Shown here one piece after another: positions 5,212 through 14,555 of a stretch of 64,000 nucleotides of DNA. The notes below the pieces were generated by a model. The model ran no database searches. It worked only from the letters and a program-made list of their open reading frames with translations, and was not told where the DNA came from. Within the stretch, counting starts at the first letter, position 1; each line of letters begins with the position of its first letter. Origin of the DNA: an uncultured Ruminococcus sp. GTDB lineage: Bacteria > Bacillota > Clostridia > Oscillospirales > Acutalibacteraceae. The stretch is from assembly GCA_902785425.1 (NCBI GenBank), contig CACZYP010000001.1, forward strand, positions 1 to 64,000, read 5' to 3'. Made by a program: the position numbers and the translations under genes.

Positions 5212-6072
5212 GAACCTCGCCTGCGGCGAGGTTCTTAAATTGAAAATGGAAAATTGAAAATGGAAAATTGAAAATGGAAAATTGCAGAGTCGCTGCGCTC
5301 CTGATTTTATATTGGTGTTTTCAAGCCGAATAATTATCACTCGGCGGCGAGTGAAGTATGGATTTATGATGACTAATACAAATTCACCTCGCCCAAGGCG
5401 AGGTTCTTAAATTGAAAATGGAAAATTGAAAATGGAAAATTGCGGAGTCGCTGCGCTCCTGATTTTATATTGGTGTTTTCAAGCCGAATAATTATCACTC
5501 GGCGGCGAGTGAAGTATGGATTTATGATGACTAATACAAATCCAACTCGCCGAAGGAGAGGTTCTTAAATTGAAAATGGAAAATTGAAAATGGAAAATTG
5601 CGGAGTCGCTGCGCTCCTGATTTTATATTGGTGTTTTCAAACCGAATGATTATCACTCGGCGGCGAGTGAAGTGTGGATTTATGATGACTAATACAAATC
5701 CAACTCGCCTGCGGCGAGGTCCTTAAATTGAAAATGGAAAATTGAAAATGGAAAATTGCGGAGTCGCTGCGCTCCTGATTTTATATTGGTGTTTTCAAAC
5801 CGAATAATTATCACTCGGCGGCGAGTGAAGTGTGGATTTATGATGACTAATACAAATCCGACTCGCCGAAGGAGAGGTTCTTAAATTGAAAATGGAAAAT
5901 TGAAAATGGAAAATTGCAGAGTCGCTGCGCTCCTGATTTTATATTGGTGTTTTCAAACCGAATAATTATCACTCGGCAGCGAGTGAAGTATGGATTTATG
6001 ATGACTAATACAAATCCAACTCGGCGAAGCCGAGTTCCATAATTTTCCATTTTCCATTTTCAATTTTCCATT
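5212..6072. repeat. Head-to-tail tandem array of the family A element, about 5.4 copies with a 158 bp period. The first unit carries an extra 14-bp GAAAATGGAAAATT. The array ends with an inverted heptamer block aattttccattttccattttcaattttcc.
   Basis: Unit starts fall at 5229, 5401, 5559, 5717 and 5875. Each unit contains the hairpins CCTCGCC-tgcg-GGCGAGG and TCACTCG-gcg-GCGAGTGA plus the core ttgcggagtcgctgcgctcctgatttta. Confidence 0.95.
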
Positions 6073-6080
6073 AAAAAAAA

Positions 6081-6107
6081 GCCACCCACACAAATGTGTG
6101 GAATGGC
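6081..6107 (-). terminator. Terminator downstream of ackA.
   Basis: The hairpin is gccacccacaca…tgtgtggaatggc, followed by 8 Ts on the minus strand. Confidence 0.55.
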
Positions 6108-6130
6108 TTTGGTTTGTTTGAGATTTGAGA

Positions 6131-7339
6131 TTAAAGTGAACCTTCAACGATCGCTTTTGTGTCTCTTGCGATAACGAGCTCTTCGTTTGTCGGGATAACA
6201 AATACCTCGATCGAAGAATCGTCTGCGGAGATCTTGCCGGCGTTGCCGTGGATCATTGCGTTGTTCTTCTCTTTGTCTACCTTTACACCGAGGCAGGAGA
6301 GGTATTCGCAGATCTTTTCACGGAGAGTTACCTGGTTTTCACCGAGGCCTGCCGTGAATACCATGCCGTCGCAGCCGCCGAGAGCTACATAGTAGCCGCC
6401 GATGAACTTTGCGATCTCATAGTAAAGGATCTCATGAGCGAGGTGTGCTCTTTCGTTGCCTTCTTTTTCTGCCTTGGAAACGTCTCTGTCGTCGCTCGAA
6501 ATACCGGAAATACCGAGAAGACCGGACTTCTTGTTGAGCAGGTCGCTCATCTCGGAGGGAGAGAGGTTCTCTTTCTCTGCGATGAATGTTACAACGGAAG
6601 GATCGAGTGTACCTGTTCTTGAACCCATCATGAAGCCGTCAAGCGGAGTAAGACCCATAGATGTGTCGATTACCTTGCCGCCGTCGATAGCTGTAATGGA
6701 AGAACCGTTGCCGATGTGGCATGTGATGAGCTTGAGGTCTTTGATATCCTTGCCCATCATGTTTGCGCATTCGCCGCTTACATAACGGTGCGATGTGCCG
6801 TGGAAGCCGTAGCGGCGGACCTGGTACTTCTCGTAATACTCATAGGGAACAGGGTAGATGTATGCCTTTTCGGGCATTGTGGAATGGAAAGCTGTATCGA
6901 ATACAACGACCTGCGGAAGAGTCTCGCCGAACACTTCTACGCATGCTCTGAGAGCCTGAACGTGACCCTTGTTGTGGAGCGGTGCAAGCGGGATAAGGCT
7001 TTCGATGCCCTTGATGACCTCTTCGTTAACGAGAACGGACTTGCTGAAGATAGCGCCGCCCTGCACGATTCTGTGACCGATAGCCGAAACTTCGGAAAGA
7101 TCGGAGATAACGCCGTACTCGCTGTCTGTAAGTGCGTTCTTTACCTCCATGAAAGCTGCTCTGTGGTCGGGAAGAGTTACTTCCTTCTTGAACTCTTTGC
7201 CGTCAGCGTTTTTGTAGCCTACAAGACCGTCGATGCCGATCCTTTCGCAATTTCCTTTTGCAAGAACCTTTTCGTCCTCCATGTCGATAAGCTGGAACTT
7301 AAGGGACGAGCTTCCTGCGTTGATAACTAATATTTTCAA
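6131..7339 (-). CDS. ackA: Acetate kinase.
   Basis: The translation has (M)KILVINAGSSSLKFQL and conserved ackA motifs throughout. The start is placed at TTG, preceded by AAGGAGAG. Confidence 0.92.
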   Translation of the reverse strand: MKILVINAGSSSLKFQLIDMEDEKVLAKGNCERIGIDGLVGYKNADGKEFKKEVTLPDHRAAFMEVKNALTDSEYGVISDLSEVSAIGHRIVQGGAIFSKSVLVNEEVIKGIESLIPLAPLHNKGHVQALRACVEVFGETLPQVVVFDTAFHSTMPEKAYIYPVPYEYYEKYQVRRYGFHGTSHRYVSGECANMMGKDIKDLKLITCHIGNGSSITAIDGGKVIDTSMGLTPLDGFMMGSRTGTLDPSVVTFIAEKENLSPSEMSDLLNKKSGLLGISGISSDDRDVSKAEKEGNERAHLAHEILYYEIAKFIGGYYVALGGCDGMVFTAGLGENQVTLREKICEYLSCLGVKVDKEKNNAMIHGNAGKISADDSSIEVFVIPTNEELVIARDTKAIVEGSL

Positions 7340-7382
7340 TGGTATTCTCTCCTTGTGCGTTACCGCCATTATTTCATCTATA

Positions 7383-7463: not shown

Positions 7464-9206
7464 TTACAGCGCTTTCGTTCTGATCTCTTCGAGAACGTCC
7501 GAAAGGAACTTCTCAACGCTCATAGCGCCGATGTCGCCCTGCTTTCTCGAACGAACGGAAACAGTATTGGCTTCGATATCCTTGTCGCCGCAAAGGATCA
7601 TGTACGGGATTTTCCGGAGCTGTGCTTCTCTGATCTTGTAGCCGATCTTTTCGCTTCTGTCGTCGATCTCAACACGAAGACCCTTTTCTTCAAGCTTTGC
7701 TTTTACCTCGTTGATGTAGTCAAGGTGTCTGTCTGCGATGGGCAGCAGCTTTACCTGAACGGGAGCAAGCCATGTCGGGAATGCACCTGCGAAATGCTCC
7801 GTGATTACTCCGATAAAACGCTCGATCGAACCGAGAACGACTCTGTGTATCATAGCAGGGCGATGCTTTTCGCCGTCTGCACCGATGTATTCAAGCTCAA
7901 ATCTTTCGGGCAGCTGCATATCGAGCTGTATCGTGCCGCACTGCCATGTTCTGCCAAGTGAATCGGAGAGATGGAAATCAAGCTTAGGTCCGTAGAATGC
8001 GCCGTCGCCTTCATTTATAACGAAAGATTTTCCGAGATCCGTACATGCCTGTTTTAACGTATCCGTAGCAAAATCCCATGTAGCAACGTGACCGAGATGA
8101 TCTTCGGGCATTGTCGATACTTCGATCTGATAGGAAAGTCCGAAAACGGAATAGACCTCGTCAAACAGGTTGATAACATTTTTGATCTCATCTCTCATCT
8201 GCTCCCATGTCATAAATACATGAGCGTCGTCCTGTGTAAAGCAGCGGACACGGAAAAGACCGTGAAGCGCACCCGAAAGCTCATGCCTGTGAACAAGACC
8301 CAATTCGCCGATTCGCAAAGGCAGCTCTTTGTAGGAGTGCGGCTCCGATTTGTAAACGAGCATTCCGCCGGGGCAGTTCATCGGCTTGATGCAGAACTGT
8401 GTGTCGTCTATCATCGTGGAATACATATTCTCGCTATAGTGCGCCCAGTGACCCGATTTTTCCCACAAAGCCTTATCAAGCATTATAGGCGTGGATATTT
8501 CAAGGTAATTGTAGCGCTTATGAACTTCACGCCAGTAATCTATGAGCGTGTTTCTCAACACCATGCCTTTCGGTAGGAAGAACGGAAAACCGGGGCCTTC
8601 GTCCATAAGAACGTACAGACCAAGCTCTTTGCCGAGCTTGCGGTGATCTCTTTTTTTTGCTTCCTCGATCCTTTGCAGGTATTCGTCAAGCTCCGCTTTG
8701 CTCGGATAAGCTACGCCGTATATGCGCTGTAAAGCCGCTTTTGAAGAATCGCCTCTCCAGTAAGCGGAGTTACAGGCTGTAAGCTTTACCGCATTTGCTT
8801 TTACTCTGCCTGTGGAATCAAGGTGCGGTCCTGCGCACAAGTCCGTAAACTCTCCCTGCTTGTAGAAGCTGATAACGGCGTCGTCGGGAAGATCGTTTAT
8901 AAGCTCGATCTTGTACGGCTCGGACTTCATAAGCTCCAAAGCCTCTTCACGGGGCAGCTCAAATCTTTCAAGCTTCAGTTTTTCTTTGCAGATCTTTTTC
9001 ATTTCGGCTTCGATCTTTTCCAGTATCTCCGGCGTGAAGCTGAACGGAGCGTCCATATCGTAATAAAAGCCGTTGTCTATTGAAGGACCTATCGCAAGTT
9101 TTACTTCCGGGTAAAGTCTCTTGACTGCCTGCGCCAGTATATGAGAGCAGGTATGCCAATACGTCCTCCTGTATTCTTCATTTTCAAACGTTGATTTGTT
9201 TTCCAT
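7464..9206 (-). CDS. thrS: Threonine--tRNA ligase paralog 1. It lacks the N-terminal TGS domain and begins at the N2 editing domain (WHTCSH).
   Basis: Class II aaRS motifs and a ThrRS anticodon-binding C-terminus are present. AAGGAGG sits 8 nt before the M18 start. Confidence 0.9.
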   Translation of the reverse strand: MENKSTFENEEYRRTYWHTCSHILAQAVKRLYPEVKLAIGPSIDNGFYYDMDAPFSFTPEILEKIEAEMKKICKEKLKLERFELPREEALELMKSEPYKIELINDLPDDAVISFYKQGEFTDLCAGPHLDSTGRVKANAVKLTACNSAYWRGDSSKAALQRIYGVAYPSKAELDEYLQRIEEAKKRDHRKLGKELGLYVLMDEGPGFPFFLPKGMVLRNTLIDYWREVHKRYNYLEISTPIMLDKALWEKSGHWAHYSENMYSTMIDDTQFCIKPMNCPGGMLVYKSEPHSYKELPLRIGELGLVHRHELSGALHGLFRVRCFTQDDAHVFMTWEQMRDEIKNVINLFDEVYSVFGLSYQIEVSTMPEDHLGHVATWDFATDTLKQACTDLGKSFVINEGDGAFYGPKLDFHLSDSLGRTWQCGTIQLDMQLPERFELEYIGADGEKHRPAMIHRVVLGSIERFIGVITEHFAGAFPTWLAPVQVKLLPIADRHLDYINEVKAKLEEKGLRVEIDDRSEKIGYKIREAQLRKIPYMILCGDKDIEANTVSVRSRKQGDIGAMSVEKFLSDVLEEIRTKAL

Positions 9207-9381
9207 TTTGTTTTCCTCCTTGTCTCCGGCTTGATGTGAAACATAGTTATCAAGCACAGTAATTATAAAAATGTTGATAAAAACTGTTTAGTTTTTATGA
9301 TTTAGGGTAAAAAAATACCGGCAGCAGACAGCGGTGAGATACTCAAAGACCGATCATCGGAAAGCGCAGGGTATTATCGGT

Positions 9382-9508
9382 GTGACGGGTTGTTACGGGT
9401 TTTCAGCGTTTTCTAACTCTTTTTACTAAAAATATAAATGGTAAATAATGGTATATAGAAATAGTAAAAGGTTTTGGAAATTCACAAAAACCCGTCACAA
9501 CCCGTCAC
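9382..9508. repeat. Long inverted repeat with an approximately 22-bp stem, gtgacgggttgttacgggtttt / aaaacccgtcacaacccgtcac, around an 82-nt AT-rich loop between the thrS paralogs.
   Basis: It is directly visible, with one mismatch between the arms. Confidence 0.8.
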
Positions 9509-9602
9509 AGCTCAAAGATCAATGCTTCCGATGTACCGTTCAGGATGAATACCGCATCGTTTTGCTGTCATCTGTGCCGTTAGTAACACATTAAAGAGTA
9601 GC

Positions 9603-11543
9603 TTACAGTGCCTTCGTTCTGATCTCTTCGAGAACGTCTTCAAGGAACTTCTCAACGCTCATAGCGCCGATGTCGCCCTGTTTTCTCGAACGAACGGAAA
9701 CAGTATTGGCTTCGATATCCTTGTCGCCGCAAAGCAGCATGTAAGGAACCTTTTCAAGCTGTGCTTCTCTGATCTTGTAGCCGATCTTTTCGCTTCTGTC
9801 GTCGATCTCGACACGAAGACCCTTTTCTTCGAGCTTTGCTTTTACCTCGTAGATGTAGTCAAGGTGTCTGTCTGCGATGGGCAGGAGCTTTACCTGAACG
9901 GGAGCGAGCCACATCGGGAATGCGCCTGCGTACTTCTCGATAAGAAGCGCAAGTGTTCTCTCGTAGCAGCCGATAGATGTTCTGTGAATGATGTAGGGGT
10001 TCTTTTTTGTACCGTCTTTGTCAACGTATTCCATGCCGAACTTCTCTGCGAGCATCTGGTCGATCTGTATGGTGATGAGCGTATCCTCTTTGCCGTGAAC
10101 GTTCTTGATCTGAATGTCGAGCTTCGGACCGTAGAATGCAGCTTCGCCGATACCGATCTTGTATGTTACACCGAGATCGTCAAGGATAGTCTTCATGATG
10201 CCCTGAGCTTCGTCCCACTGCTCTTCGGTGCCGATGTACTTTTCACGGTCGGTCGGATCCCACTGCGAGAAGCGGTAGGAAACATCGTCCTGAAGACCGA
10301 GCGTTGTGAGCATGAATGTGGTAAGTTCGAGGCACTTCTTGAACTCGTCTGCAAGCTGATCGGGACGGCACATAAGGTGTCCCTCGGAGATGGTGAACTG
10401 ACGAACTCTGATAAGACCGTGCATCTCGCCGCTTGCTTCGTTTCTGAACAGGGTAGAGGTCTCGTTGTAGCGCAGCGGAAGATCTCTGTAAGAGCGCTGC
10501 TTGTTGAGATATGCCTGATACTGGAACGGACATGTCATCGGGCGGAGAGCGTAGACCTCTTTGTCCTTTTCCTCGTCGCCGAGAACGAACATGCCGTCTT
10601 TATAGTGATCCCAGTGACCCGAGATCTTGTAAAGGTCGGACTTTGCCATGAACGGAGTTTTGGTGAGAAGCCAGCCTCTCTTCTGCTCCTCGTCCTCAAC
10701 GAAACGCTGTAAAAGCTGGATAACTCTTGCACCCTTAGGAAGCATGATCGGCAAGCCCTGACCGATATAATCTACGGTCGTGAAAAGCTCCAGCTCACGG
10801 CCGAGCTTGTTGTGATCTCTCTTCTTTGCCTCTTCGAGCATAGTGAGATGCTCTTCAAGCATAGACGCTTTCGGGAAAGCGGTTCCGTAAACTCTGCAAA
10901 GCTGAGCGTTGTTTGCGTCGCCTCTCCAGTAAGCGCCTGTACATGCGGTGAGCTTGAATGCTTTGAGCGGAGAAACGTTCATAAGGTGAGGGCCTGCGCA
11001 AAGATCGGTAAAGTCGCCCTGCTTGTAGAACGAGATTTTCTCGCCCTTATCGGAATGCTCCTTTGCAAGCTCTACCTTGTAAGGTTCGCCCATCTCTTCA
11101 AGAAGCTTTACAGCCTCATCGGGAGCAAGCTCAAAACGCTCAACTTCGATGCCGCTCTTTACGATAGCCTTCATCTCTTTGGTGATAGCTTCAAGGTCTT
11201 CGGGCGAGAATGCCTTTTCTACGTCGAAATCATAGTAAAAGCCGCCGTCGATAGCAGGACCGATAGCAAGCTTTGCGTTCGGGTAAAGATGCTTTACAGC
11301 CTGTGCAAGAACGTGCGAAGCGGTATGCCAGAATACCTTCTTGCCGTCCTCATCGTCAAAGGTTACGAGTTCAAGCTTGCAGTCCTTTGTAAGCGGAGTG
11401 CGGAGATCGCATACAACGTTGTCGATGCGTGCAGCGCAGCAGGACTTGTAAAGACCCATGCTTATAGATTTTGCGATTTCAGCAGCGGTAATGTTTTCTT
11501 CATACTGATTAACAACTCCGCCTTTAAGTTCAACATTGATCAT
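9603..11543 (-). CDS. thrS: Threonine--tRNA ligase paralog 2, full length with TGS, N2 editing, catalytic and anticodon-binding domains.
   Basis: The N-terminus is MINVELKGG…, with HTASHVLAQAV and class II motifs. It has an RBS GAGGTG. Confidence 0.93.
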   Translation of the reverse strand: MINVELKGGVVNQYEENITAAEIAKSISMGLYKSCCAARIDNVVCDLRTPLTKDCKLELVTFDDEDGKKVFWHTASHVLAQAVKHLYPNAKLAIGPAIDGGFYYDFDVEKAFSPEDLEAITKEMKAIVKSGIEVERFELAPDEAVKLLEEMGEPYKVELAKEHSDKGEKISFYKQGDFTDLCAGPHLMNVSPLKAFKLTACTGAYWRGDANNAQLCRVYGTAFPKASMLEEHLTMLEEAKKRDHNKLGRELELFTTVDYIGQGLPIMLPKGARVIQLLQRFVEDEEQKRGWLLTKTPFMAKSDLYKISGHWDHYKDGMFVLGDEEKDKEVYALRPMTCPFQYQAYLNKQRSYRDLPLRYNETSTLFRNEASGEMHGLIRVRQFTISEGHLMCRPDQLADEFKKCLELTTFMLTTLGLQDDVSYRFSQWDPTDREKYIGTEEQWDEAQGIMKTILDDLGVTYKIGIGEAAFYGPKLDIQIKNVHGKEDTLITIQIDQMLAEKFGMEYVDKDGTKKNPYIIHRTSIGCYERTLALLIEKYAGAFPMWLAPVQVKLLPIADRHLDYIYEVKAKLEEKGLRVEIDDRSEKIGYKIREAQLEKVPYMLLCGDKDIEANTVSVRSRKQGDIGAMSVEKFLEDVLEEIRTKAL

Positions 11544-11639: not shown

Positions 11640-11990
11640 AAAAACAAAAACTGCGCCCCTTACAAAAGGGACGCAGTAATACTTTACCCGTGATTCCACC
11701 CAGATTCGGCATTATACAAAAAAGTATAACACCCTCATTGCGACGTTTAACGGAGTCAACCGTTCCGGCTTGTTACTGCCGGACTCTCGGAGGTGGTGTG
11801 CTTATCTGCTGTATTTACAAGCGCTCCCAGCCAATGACGCTTGCTCTCCGGAAATACCTCTGCAAAAAGCCGTCCTCGTCAACGATTTCGATCTATTGAG
11901 TTCATATTATCACAATCGGCAGCGGTTGTCAAGCATAAATAAAAGGATTTTAAGAAAGGTTCAAAAAAAGCGACTAAATGGAGCACTGTT
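11640..11990 (-). promoter_or_regulatory. T-box riboswitch leader of thrS paralog 2.
   Basis: In the minus sense the T-box core AATCTGGGTGGAATCACGGG is immediately followed by the terminator hairpin ctgcgtccc-ttttgtaa-ggggcgcag and a U-run (plus coordinates 11651-11710). Confidence 0.55.
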
Positions 11991-12395: not shown

Positions 12396-14555
12396 ATGAA
12401 ACTAAAAAAAATGACGTGTATCATCTGTGCAGCCGCAATGCTTTCGACATTTGCCGCAGCACCCATCGGTCAGGCGAGTGCGTACACCATTGATGTGCAG
12501 GCAAGCACAAATCAGGAAACACCCGATGACGCACCGCACAATGAAGAAACTTTCACAAGCGGCGGCTATGAATATGTGACCGCCGAAAGCGGCGTAAAGA
12601 TCATAAAGTACACCGGCAGCGATAAAAACATTGATGTACCGTCAGAGATCGACGGCAAGAAAGTAACGACGATCGGCAGAGAATGTTTTGCTGACAACAA
12701 CAATGTTGAATCTATAACCATCCCCGAAGGCGTTACATCAATTGAAGATCAAGCTTTCAAGGGGTGTACATCGCTCAAAAACATATCTCTGCCCGATTCG
12801 CTCGTGCATTTTGAAAGCGAGGTATTTCAGGACTGTACTGCTATCGAAGAGGTAACGCTTCCGGACAACATAGACCCAGAGCAAATGGGCATCGGCACTT
12901 TCAGAGGCTGCTCATCGCTCAAAAAGGTAACACGTCCGCAGTACACTGCGTCTATCTATGAGTATTACGGCTGTTCCTCACTTGAATATGCTCCGCTCGA
13001 TGAAAATGCAATAGTGATCCCTCACTGCGTTTTCGAGGGCTGTACAAGTCTTAAAGAAGCTGCTATTCCCAAAGAAACAGAAAAGATTTTTCAGAGCGCA
13101 TTCAAAGACTGCGTAAATCTTGAAAAAGTCGTATTTGAGGGCAATACGGAAATAATAGACGGTGATTCCGAGGGCGACAACCCCGTATTCCACAACTGCC
13201 CGAAACTCACGATCTACGGCCACGACGGCAGCAACGCCGAAAAGTACGCAATAGAGCATGAGATACCGTTCGTTTCGCTCGATGTTTACACAAGCGGCGA
13301 TTATGAATACTGCATCGTTGACGGCACACTGAAAATAATGAAGTACAACGGCAGCACCGAAAATATAGAAGTTCCTGCCGAGCTTGACGGCATCAAGGTA
13401 ACATGGATATCGCTTGAAGTATTCGCAGGACATGAAGAGATCGTTTCCGTAAAGATACCGGAAGGCGTTATGCAGGTCGGTCATCAGGCATTTATGGGAT
13501 GCACGAATCTGAAAGAAGTGCAGTTCCCGAGCACGCTCAAAATACTCGGAAGCGGCGTTTTCAGAGATTGCAGATCTATCGAAGAGGTAACTATCCCCGA
13601 TTCCGTTGAAGATATGGGCATCGGAATGTTCCAGAACTGCAGCTCGCTCAAAAAGGTTACGCTGCCGAACTACAGCGTTTCGCCGTATATGTATTCGGGC
13701 TGTATCGCTCTTGAGTATGCTCCGCTCGACCTGAGCGAAGAAGCAGGCGACGTTATGCCGCTGATACCACACCGTGTATTTGAAAAATGTACAAGCCTAA
13801 GAGAAGTCACTATCCCGGTATACATGGAAAAGATATACGAGGGTGCATTTGCAGACTGCGAAAACCTTGAAAAGGCCGTATTCCTCGGCAACACCGAGAT
13901 AATCGACGGCACCGAGGGCGGCGACGAAGACGTATTCGTTCGCTGCCCGATGCTCACGATCTACGGCCACGACGGCAGCAACGCAGAAAAGTACGCCGCA
14001 GAGCATGAGATACCGTTTGTTTCGCTCGATAAGCCGCAATATAACACCTCCGACGAAGATTTGAACTGGGATTACGGAAAAACAGACGGCATAACATTAT
14101 CCGTAAAGCTCAGCAACGGAGCAAGTGCCGAAAAATTTGAGAGCTTTGAGATCGACGGCAAAACAGTAGATCCTAAGTATTACACCGTTACATCTTCCGA
14201 TGACGGCGTAAATATTACGCTCGATTACGAATACATGCAGACATTCGGCGTAGGTCTTTATAACTTGTGTGCGAAATTCGCCGACGGAGAGGTAACAACA
14301 AACCTCGTTGTTGATGCTGCGCCCGAGCCAAAAGGCATTTACGGCGATATAGATGGCGACGGTTTCATAACCGCAGCCGACGCTCTTGCGGTGCTTCGTG
14401 TCAGCGTAGAATTGGACGAATTCTCTCCCGAAGATCAAAAGAAAGCAGATATAGACAGTGACGGATCGATAACGGCGGCCGATGCGCTTGCTGTATTGAG
14501 ATTCAGTGTAGGAATATCTGACCAGGGTTCGATGATCGGGTCTGAAATAAACTGA
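12396..14555 (+). CDS. Secreted cell-surface protein with a signal peptide, two blocks of BspA-type leucine-rich repeats and a C-terminal type-I dockerin pair.
   Basis: The N-terminus is MKLKKMTCIICAAAMLSTFAAAP. Repeated LRR segments are present (EGVTSIEDQAFKGCTSLK…), along with two dockerin repeats (DIDGDGFITAADALAVLR and DIDSDGSITAADALAVLR). Confidence 0.8.
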   Translation: MKLKKMTCIICAAAMLSTFAAAPIGQASAYTIDVQASTNQETPDDAPHNEETFTSGGYEYVTAESGVKIIKYTGSDKNIDVPSEIDGKKVTTIGRECFADNNNVESITIPEGVTSIEDQAFKGCTSLKNISLPDSLVHFESEVFQDCTAIEEVTLPDNIDPEQMGIGTFRGCSSLKKVTRPQYTASIYEYYGCSSLEYAPLDENAIVIPHCVFEGCTSLKEAAIPKETEKIFQSAFKDCVNLEKVVFEGNTEIIDGDSEGDNPVFHNCPKLTIYGHDGSNAEKYAIEHEIPFVSLDVYTSGDYEYCIVDGTLKIMKYNGSTENIEVPAELDGIKVTWISLEVFAGHEEIVSVKIPEGVMQVGHQAFMGCTNLKEVQFPSTLKILGSGVFRDCRSIEEVTIPDSVEDMGIGMFQNCSSLKKVTLPNYSVSPYMYSGCIALEYAPLDLSEEAGDVMPLIPHRVFEKCTSLREVTIPVYMEKIYEGAFADCENLEKAVFLGNTEIIDGTEGGDEDVFVRCPMLTIYGHDGSNAEKYAAEHEIPFVSLDKPQYNTSDEDLNWDYGKTDGITLSVKLSNGASAEKFESFEIDGKTVDPKYYTVTSSDDGVNITLDYEYMQTFGVGLYNLCAKFADGEVTTNLVVDAAPEPKGIYGDIDGDGFITAADALAVLRVSVELDEFSPEDQKKADIDSDGSITAADALAVLRFSVGISDQGSMIGSEIN

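Follow-up and report, generated by a model that had tools for sequence, protein, structure and literature searches.

Several bacteria carry a second threonyl-tRNA synthetase (ThrRS). A backup of the thrZ type is a second gene with its own T-box leader, which remains silent unless the first enzyme becomes limiting. Another second copy, ObaO, is encoded within the obafluorin biosynthetic cluster. As to the way in which gene copies evolve, tufA/tufB in Salmonella and the rRNA operons undergo concerted evolution by gene conversion, by which whole true duplicates are homogenised. The Bacillus subtilis genes thrS and thrZ are listed among the T-box genes (PMC2494555). The obafluorin/borrelidin resistance determinant in ObaO is Gly463Ser, and resistance of this type goes with Ser or another rigid residue at that position (PMC11252418). 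Anabaena sp. PCC 7120 has a divergent ThrRS pair, T1/T2, for which heterodimers (trans-oligomerisation) are documented, so that ThrRS copies are able to cooperate; its T2 is defective in editing, is regulated by Zur and is induced when zinc is low (PMC4787780). According to the same study, duplicated aminoacyl-tRNA synthetases are common and few of them are understood. Finally, the leucyl-tRNA synthetase (LeuRS) of Natrialba magadii is described as a natural chimera with tRNA-binding domains of another type (PMC4005665). Here, we describe a locus on a 64,000-nt stretch of DNA (positions 1 to 64,000 of contig CACZYP010000001.1, assembly GCA_902785425.1; hereafter the window) from an uncultured Ruminococcus sp. 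Two complete ThrRS genes (thrS) lie head-to-tail on its minus strand, thrS-L (L) upstream and thrS-S (S) downstream. As a whole, the locus is probably best explained by two old, functional ThrRS genes standing in tandem, the 3' ends (tails) of which have been re-homogenised by gene conversion after a domain replacement.

Like B. subtilis thrS/thrZ, the locus provides a Firmicute genome with two complete ThrRS genes, at least one of them under T-box(Thr) control. However, the B. subtilis genes are unlinked, have a leader each and no converted domain has been described for them, whereas in the window the genes are adjacent, the T-box is found only upstream of L, S lacks the TGS domain and the tails are homogenised. 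The presence of two divergent ThrRS in one genome is shared with Anabaena T1/T2; unlike that pair, L and S both keep the editing residues, the regulation is of the T-box type and nothing points to zinc. As with ObaO, an additional ThrRS copy is present in which the fold and the substrate-binding residues are conserved, but L and S keep Gly463 and Leu489 and no cluster is evident among the neighbours. As for the tuf and rRNA genes, copies within one genome are more alike than orthologues, although in this case only one domain (two in other lineages) of anciently diverged enzymes is homogenised, following a domain replacement. Similar to the N. magadii LeuRS, the tRNA-binding module is of another origin than the catalytic body and a second copy coexists; LeuRS differs in enzyme class and domain of life, and the abstract on it mentions no continuing conversion between the coexisting copies. 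In the literature searched, there was no report of gene conversion between bacterial synthetase paralogues or in a single domain of non-duplicate genes, nor of a TGS-less ThrRS in Clostridia. Known phenomena, namely duplicated synthetases and concerted evolution, are combined here in a domain-limited form, and not as an antibiotic-resistance gene.

Based on open reading frames (ORFs) and Pfam domains, the tandem genes lie where an earlier note on this DNA, made from the sequence alone, had placed them, and the downstream copy indeed lacks the TGS domain. All features of the locus given below are on the minus strand unless indicated otherwise. L (9603-11543) encodes a full-length ThrRS of 646 amino acids (aa) with TGS, N2 editing, class II core and anticodon-binding domains (Pfam TGS, tRNA_SAD, tRNA-synt_2b and HGTP_anticodon), the core being of the Ruminococcus/Staphylococcus type with the active-site motif TISEGH. 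S (7464-9206) encodes a protein of 580 aa that consists of an N2 editing domain, an E. coli-like core with the motif TQDDAH and an L-type anticodon-binding domain (tRNA_SAD, tRNA-synt_2b and HGTP_anticodon), with no match to PF02824 (TGS); no remnant of a TGS domain was found in the spacer between L and S either. The longest S ORF (7464-9257) begins at GTG 9257. The supported start is ATG 9206, with a Shine-Dalgarno sequence AGGAGG (9215-9220) 8 nt upstream and the same MEN/MES start residues in orthologues. Both proteins score above the TIGR00418 thrS equivalog cut-off of 383.65 bits, S with 712.8 bits and L with 652.2 bits. The labels of a canonical upstream and a diverged downstream copy, as given in the earlier note, are therefore reversed, since it is S that has the TQDDAH motif and the higher TIGR00418 score, while L has TISEGH.

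In a codon-aligned sliding window, S and L have a nucleotide identity of 0.28-0.73 across the first ~475 codons of S, which rises to 0.89-0.97 in the final ~108. The divergence is thus not uniform along the gene pair but shows a clear cliff. As expected from the earlier inspection, which put the last 110 or so codons at more than 90% identity at the DNA level, base-level alignment delimits a conversion tract of 329 nt at 93% identity (24 mismatches), located at 7464-7792 in S, the recipient copy, and at 9603-9931 in L, the copy of the donor lineage. An independent repeat search returned 7464-7763 / 9603-9902 at 93%, and BLASTN gave 330 nt at 93.0%. The tract corresponds to the anticodon-binding domain, starting within the conserved GAFP-WLAP motif and ending exactly with the stop codon, and has sharp boundaries against divergent flanks, the 3' flanks being unrelated. 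The tails, with their 24 differing sites, are both in frame. Inside the S tract, a small divergent patch at about 7597-7618 reads RKIPYMI versus EKVPYML.

Outside the tract the two genes are very different. The catalytic cores of L and S are only 36% identical as protein, so the divergence that had been put at half of the core residues is real and its extent was understated. Across all genome pairs compared, the core identity between any S-type and any L-type enzyme is 0.33-0.40. Because the value within the window equals this cross-type identity between different genomes, L and S belong to two old, widespread ThrRS lineages and did not arise by recent duplication; the term ‘paralogs’, if it is to mean that one copy of a duplicated gene has diverged, is not supported. 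A phylogeny of the catalytic cores gave two old clades with a clean split into S and L types, and the N2 tree likewise separates S from L. The closest solved structures are E. coli ThrRS (1qf6) for S and S. aureus ThrRS (1nyq) for L.

Orthologues of S, of 580-584 aa, without TGS and ~80% identical, are widespread in Butyricicoccus, Onthomonas, Intestinimonas, other Oscillospiraceae and ‘Clostridiales’. The lack of TGS is therefore no peculiarity of the downstream copy, since it is the normal form of the S-type enzyme in Oscillospiraceae and Butyricicoccaceae. With one genome per species, relatives that are more than ~70% identical to S mostly lack TGS, and more distant ones (Lachnospiraceae and others) mostly have it. 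A T-box core motif is present upstream of at least 51 of 75 stand-alone S-type genes (chance expectation below 1). Judged from these comparisons, S is an orthologue of the ordinary ThrRS of many Oscillospiraceae, usually T-box-regulated and TGS-less. L-type proteins, of 647 aa, are equally abundant in metagenome-assembled genomes (MAGs) of Ruminococcus and Acutalibacteraceae, and the names given to L orthologues with 82-88% identity are Ruminococcus, Acutalibacteraceae or Oscillospiraceae.

Next, the direction of the transfer was considered. Stand-alone S orthologues are 84-93% identical to the window S in N2 and core and 52-66% (roughly 55-60%) in the tail, and L orthologues are 66-86% identical to both window tails. 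In the tree of the anticodon-binding domain, the window S tail is sister to the window L tail, inside the L clade. Since the S tail falls in the L clade, and S and L remain separate in the trees of N2 and core, the S tail is of L-type origin, which gives a transfer direction from L-type to S. P0005 and P0006 (core 91.5-92.8% identical), the nearest relatives in which the S tail is native, bracket the first tail replacement.

The timing follows from a sister species, contig L085 of which carries the same L-then-S tandem with a spacer of only 43 bp. Its S core is 93.6% identical to that of the window, and its L gene, as far as the contig contains it (core region), is ~93% identical to the window L. 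Its two tails, in turn, are 93% identical to each other and 80-84% to the window tails. According to Nei-Gojobori estimates of synonymous divergence (dS), the tract dS is 0.245 within the window genome and 0.293 within L085, versus 0.72-0.87 between the two species, and orthologues outside the tract have a dS of about 1.4. Segments within one genome are thus closer to each other than to their orthologues, also at synonymous sites, as gene conversion predicts. In addition, many substitutions occur in both tails of the same species and in neither tail of the other, and the extent of the RKIPYMI patch differs between the window species and L085. Because the tail dS within each genome is far below that between the species, at least one conversion took place in each sister lineage after speciation. 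The dS values, the trees and the sister species together support the idea of the earlier note that conversion has homogenised the anticodon-binding domain while the cores stayed distinct. Its word ‘recent’ holds only in a relative sense, as a tract dS of about 0.25 is not young.

Both genes are apparently functional and under strong purifying selection. The residues that serve as zinc ligands in the E. coli structures (E. coli Cys334, His385 and His511), as well as Arg363 of motif 2 and Arg520 of motif 3, are present in both proteins, with no inactivating substitution at these positions in either. The N2 editing residues His73, His77, Lys156, Asp180, Cys182 and His186 are conserved in S and L as well. 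Between the sister species, S (N2 and core) has a dN/dS of 0.024, the L core one of 0.040 and the S tail one of about 0.14. A pseudo-enzyme is ruled out, given that no catalytic or editing residue is missing and that dN/dS is as low as 0.02-0.04. Within the active site, S has the canonical TQDDAH as in E. coli ThrRS, and TISEGH is found throughout the L clade, with Glu (L residue Glu387) for E. coli Asp383 and Ile (Ile385) for Gln381; the equivalent motif in S. aureus ThrRS is TLNDSH. In E. coli, Asp383 contacts the threonine hydroxyl; the L clade has a glutamate at this position.

The course of events proposed for the locus would start with two functional ThrRS of the two old lineages arranged in tandem. 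In an ancestor shared with the sister species, the anticodon-binding domain of S would have been replaced by an L-type domain, which created a direct repeat of ~330 bp, with the copies 2.1 kb apart. Homologous recombination between these repeats, in the form of non-reciprocal gene conversion, would then have re-homogenised the tails at least once per species. RecA-dependent recombination requires identity over some tens of bases. Inside the tract, exact matches between L and S reach 53 nt, and outside it 18 nt at most; because of this difference, the tract could sustain itself and the rest of the genes could not recombine, so that conversion would be limited to the tail, the only part with exact matches long enough. 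The exchanged tail would be functionally neutral, because both enzymes must recognise the same tRNA-Thr anticodons. We infer this recombination mechanism, as we do any division of labour between L and S.

Several points weigh against this explanation. The first tail replacement cannot have used long homology, the native tails being ~57% identical as protein. The ends of the tract, a conserved motif and a stop codon, could equally reflect selection deciding which of the chimeras persist. That conversion is restricted to domains outside the core in two to three lineages may point to selection for distinct cores and not simply to missing homology. The closest stand-alone S orthologue (L084) has a consensus-like promoter and no T-box, and without the latter S is not a uniformly T-box-regulated housekeeping gene in this sub-clade. 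Finally, all tandem loci and closest relatives analysed are metagenome assemblies or MAGs.

Similar pairs were found elsewhere. A second ThrRS gene lies within 7 kb at 2 of 80 S-type loci (different species) and nearby at 3 of 80 L-type metagenome loci. In Candidatus Fimivicinus intestinavium (L050) and a related species (L107 and L112, two near-identical contigs of that one species), two full-length genes are 2-16 bp apart, in an order opposite to that of the window, the gene with the E. coli-like core coming first. In these pairs, TGS and N2 reach a nucleotide identity of up to 100% and the tail of up to 97%, with cores at 33-65%; for N2 of L050, the identity within the genome (0.95-1.00) exceeds that between orthologues (0.80-0.88). 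In the MAG L066, the copies are 4.6 kb apart, with identities of 0.80 in N2 (baseline 0.58) and 0.64 in the tail (baseline 0.57). In the window, N2 is at baseline (0.56 vs 0.58). In two to three lineages, peripheral domains have thus been homogenised, and cores never. This sparing of the core across lineages is explained by the homology limit.

Some of these loci deserve a separate remark. In L050, a T-box leader (5355-5593) is followed by a gene for an AraC-family regulator (HTH_18/HTH_AraC, 5818-6789) and only then by the tandem thrS genes, an odd position for a T-box. On L142 (2593-3448), a low-coverage human-gut contig, the copy with an E. coli-like core, which lies upstream of an L-type gene, is itself split over three frames, due to either sequencing errors or decay of the copy. 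The proteins P0003 (689 aa, L083 6001-8070) and P0004 (802 aa) were considered as L-S fusions and left out, as they contain internal duplications of the S-type core region and are probably chimeras from the assembly of strain mixtures. A protein-database search with the 108-aa tail alone matched almost only short fragments at contig ends. When an L gene was sought in the assembly of the closest stand-alone S (GCA_054266075.1), the candidate matches belonged to other assemblies.

Whatever the forces behind it, the locus is a natural experiment in synthetase modularity, in which an E. coli-like core works with the anticodon-binding domain of another ThrRS lineage, and in at least two species purifying selection has maintained this chimeric S. 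The locus further shows that a single domain of two genes that are not duplicates can be the target of gene conversion, with the core always spared in two to three lineages. For annotation, the lesson is that the shorter second copy is not necessarily the derived one and that repeats of this kind break metagenome assemblies.

The confinement of conversion to peripheral domains might also have an adaptive origin. Selection would then keep two different cores, which differ for example in zinc demand, oxidation sensitivity, kinetics or inhibitor sensitivity, and would favour identical tRNA-binding and editing modules, possibly via cooperation or heterodimers. We regard this as possible but rather unlikely. 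The same mosaic occurs in the window/L085 and L050/L107 lineages and in L066, with different gene orders and converted domains, both cores are under strong purifying selection, and the changes of Asp383 to Glu and Gln381 to Ile in the active site of L are clade-wide; moreover, duplicated ThrRS form heterodimers in Anabaena (PMC4787780). However, the lack of long exact matches in the cores explains the pattern without selection, the unconverted N2 of the window means that identical editing modules are not required, and most genomes of either type show no second copy within 6-7 kb. A more specific proposal is that several Clostridia possess a two-enzyme module, in which ancient cores are kept side by side, tRNA-binding (and in some cases editing) modules are kept identical by conversion, and the TQDDAH/TISEGH difference at the threonine/zinc site underlies a specialisation. 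This is unlikely on the present comparisons. If true, such cells would have two catalytically different, possibly heterodimerising enzymes with indistinguishable tRNA recognition, specialised for instance with respect to metal supply, fidelity or a gut-borne inhibitor. Should the cores prove specialised, the maintenance of two ThrRS in one cell could be studied in gut Clostridia as a new model.

It is improbable that S is an inhibitor-insensitive (self-resistance) or stress-backup isoform that arose by duplication and divergence, as the earlier note suggested with B. subtilis thrZ, a further second ThrRS copy with a backup role, in mind. The L and S cores are indeed very different, and such second copies do exist, as illustrated by ObaO (PMC11252418) and T2 (PMC4787780). 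However, the orthologues of S include the ordinary ThrRS of many Clostridia, and its active site is canonical. A comparison with resistant ThrRS at Tyr462, Gly463 and Leu489 revealed no resistance substitution in either protein: Tyr462-Gly463 and Leu489 are retained in both, the Tyr-Gly pair is kept in 239 of 240 relatives, and resistance signatures at these three positions are ruled out. Pfam families typical of natural-product biosynthesis were not reported among the neighbouring genes. A backup of the thrZ type fits poorly as well, as S has no T-box of its own, and the editing residues of S are intact, unlike those of T2.

Very improbable is a single ancient domain swap that made the chimeric S with no continuing conversion, the likeness of the tails being due to slow evolution. 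The coincidence of the tract boundaries with a domain boundary and the stop codon would suit it, and a dS within genomes of 0.25-0.29 is not negligible. Nevertheless, such a swap predicts that the tails diverge within a genome at least as much as between orthologues, and the tail dS is 0.25-0.29 within genomes and 0.72-0.87 between the species; a single swap before speciation cannot yield this dS pattern, and it is at odds with the substitutions common to both tails of each species and with the differing extent of the RKIPYMI patch. An assembly artefact, in which the thrS genes of two organisms were joined or one 3' end was collapsed and duplicated, is extremely improbable. In its favour, all data are metagenomic, the contigs of three close L orthologues end 43-85 bp past the L stop, and P0003 and P0004 are examples of database proteins that are visibly chimeric. 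Against it, two ENA metagenome analyses (ERZ28613972 and ERZ1029115) contain the 4.7-kb region with 100% identity, the tails differ at 24 sites and are both in frame, both genes are host-like in codon usage, and the tandem recurs in the sister species, where the tails co-vary in their own way.

The contig ends just mentioned belong to the three closest L orthologues and lie 85 nt (L087), 43 nt (L088) and 48 nt (L169) past the L stop. This suggests that in those genomes, too, assemblies are broken by a repeated tail, and hence that a tandem S copy is present.

Regarding regulation, the only T-box leader of the locus, with the Thr specifier ACC, is located upstream of L at 11664-11891 (Rfam RF00230). 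The match covers the full model (1-219) with an E-value of 4.6e-14; its 70.2 bits fall short of the gathering score of 93, and the leaders of orthologues reach 72-82 bits. When the leaders of three L-type genes and one S-type gene are aligned, the specifier is ACC with A as the next base in all of them, and the conserved T-box sequence GGGTGGAA is present in the L leader. An intrinsic terminator at 11650-11677, overlapping the 3' end of the Rfam match, consists of a 12-bp stem with 7 G-C pairs followed by TTTTTGTTTTT (terminator scan). Upstream of the leader, a consensus scan gave a TG-extended promoter-like site TTGACA-17-TAATAT at 11904-11932 (10/12 matches), which is a consensus match only. 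Based on this arrangement, uncharged tRNA-Thr probably induces L by way of the T-box.

In the 396-nt spacer between L and S, an Rfam scan found no T-box at E <= 1. The only match to another known RNA was a chance-level one to a plant miRNA family, caused by a long palindrome, and was rejected. This imperfect palindrome of ~260 nt (9320-9578, repeat search) has a core inverted repeat at 9381-9509 with tandem TGTGACGGGT decamers at both ends, and is followed directly by a U-run at 9309-9319. The spacer RNA has a predicted fold of -114 kcal/mol (z = -7.4). The palindrome is unique in the window, absent from the 43-bp spacer of the sister species, and looks like a small inserted element or an operator. 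A second promoter-like site, TAAACA-17-TATAAT (9262-9290, 10/12 matches to the consensus), lies just upstream of S. Because the spacer of the sister species is only 43 bp, S was probably co-transcribed with L originally; here, the palindromic insertion, with its terminator-like hairpin, U-run and promoter-like site, may have uncoupled the two. As far as the sequence goes, the insertion may terminate L transcripts and the promoter-like site may give S its own promoter.

Downstream of S lies an acetate kinase gene (6131-7369; Pfam Acetate_kinase on the identical contig), and the terminator scan detected no terminator between the two. The other neighbouring genes, according to Pfam, encode an efflux/ABC system, a leucine-rich repeat (LRR)-dockerin protein and a 5'-nucleotidase. 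Codon usage and GC content at third codon positions (GC3) of L and S are within the range of the other window genes, and a recent foreign acquisition of one copy is unsupported, both measures being host-like. Beside the stand-alone S orthologue on L084, a ZMP/ZTP riboswitch (5535-5639, minus strand; 57.7 bits, above the gathering score) is located upstream of a pyruvate formate-lyase-like gene and its activase. In the window, the LRR-dockerin protein (12396-14555, plus strand) is a secreted protein of 719 aa with LRR_5 repeats and a C-terminal dockerin, which suggests a cellulosome-bearing, Ruminococcus-like organism of the rumen or gut.

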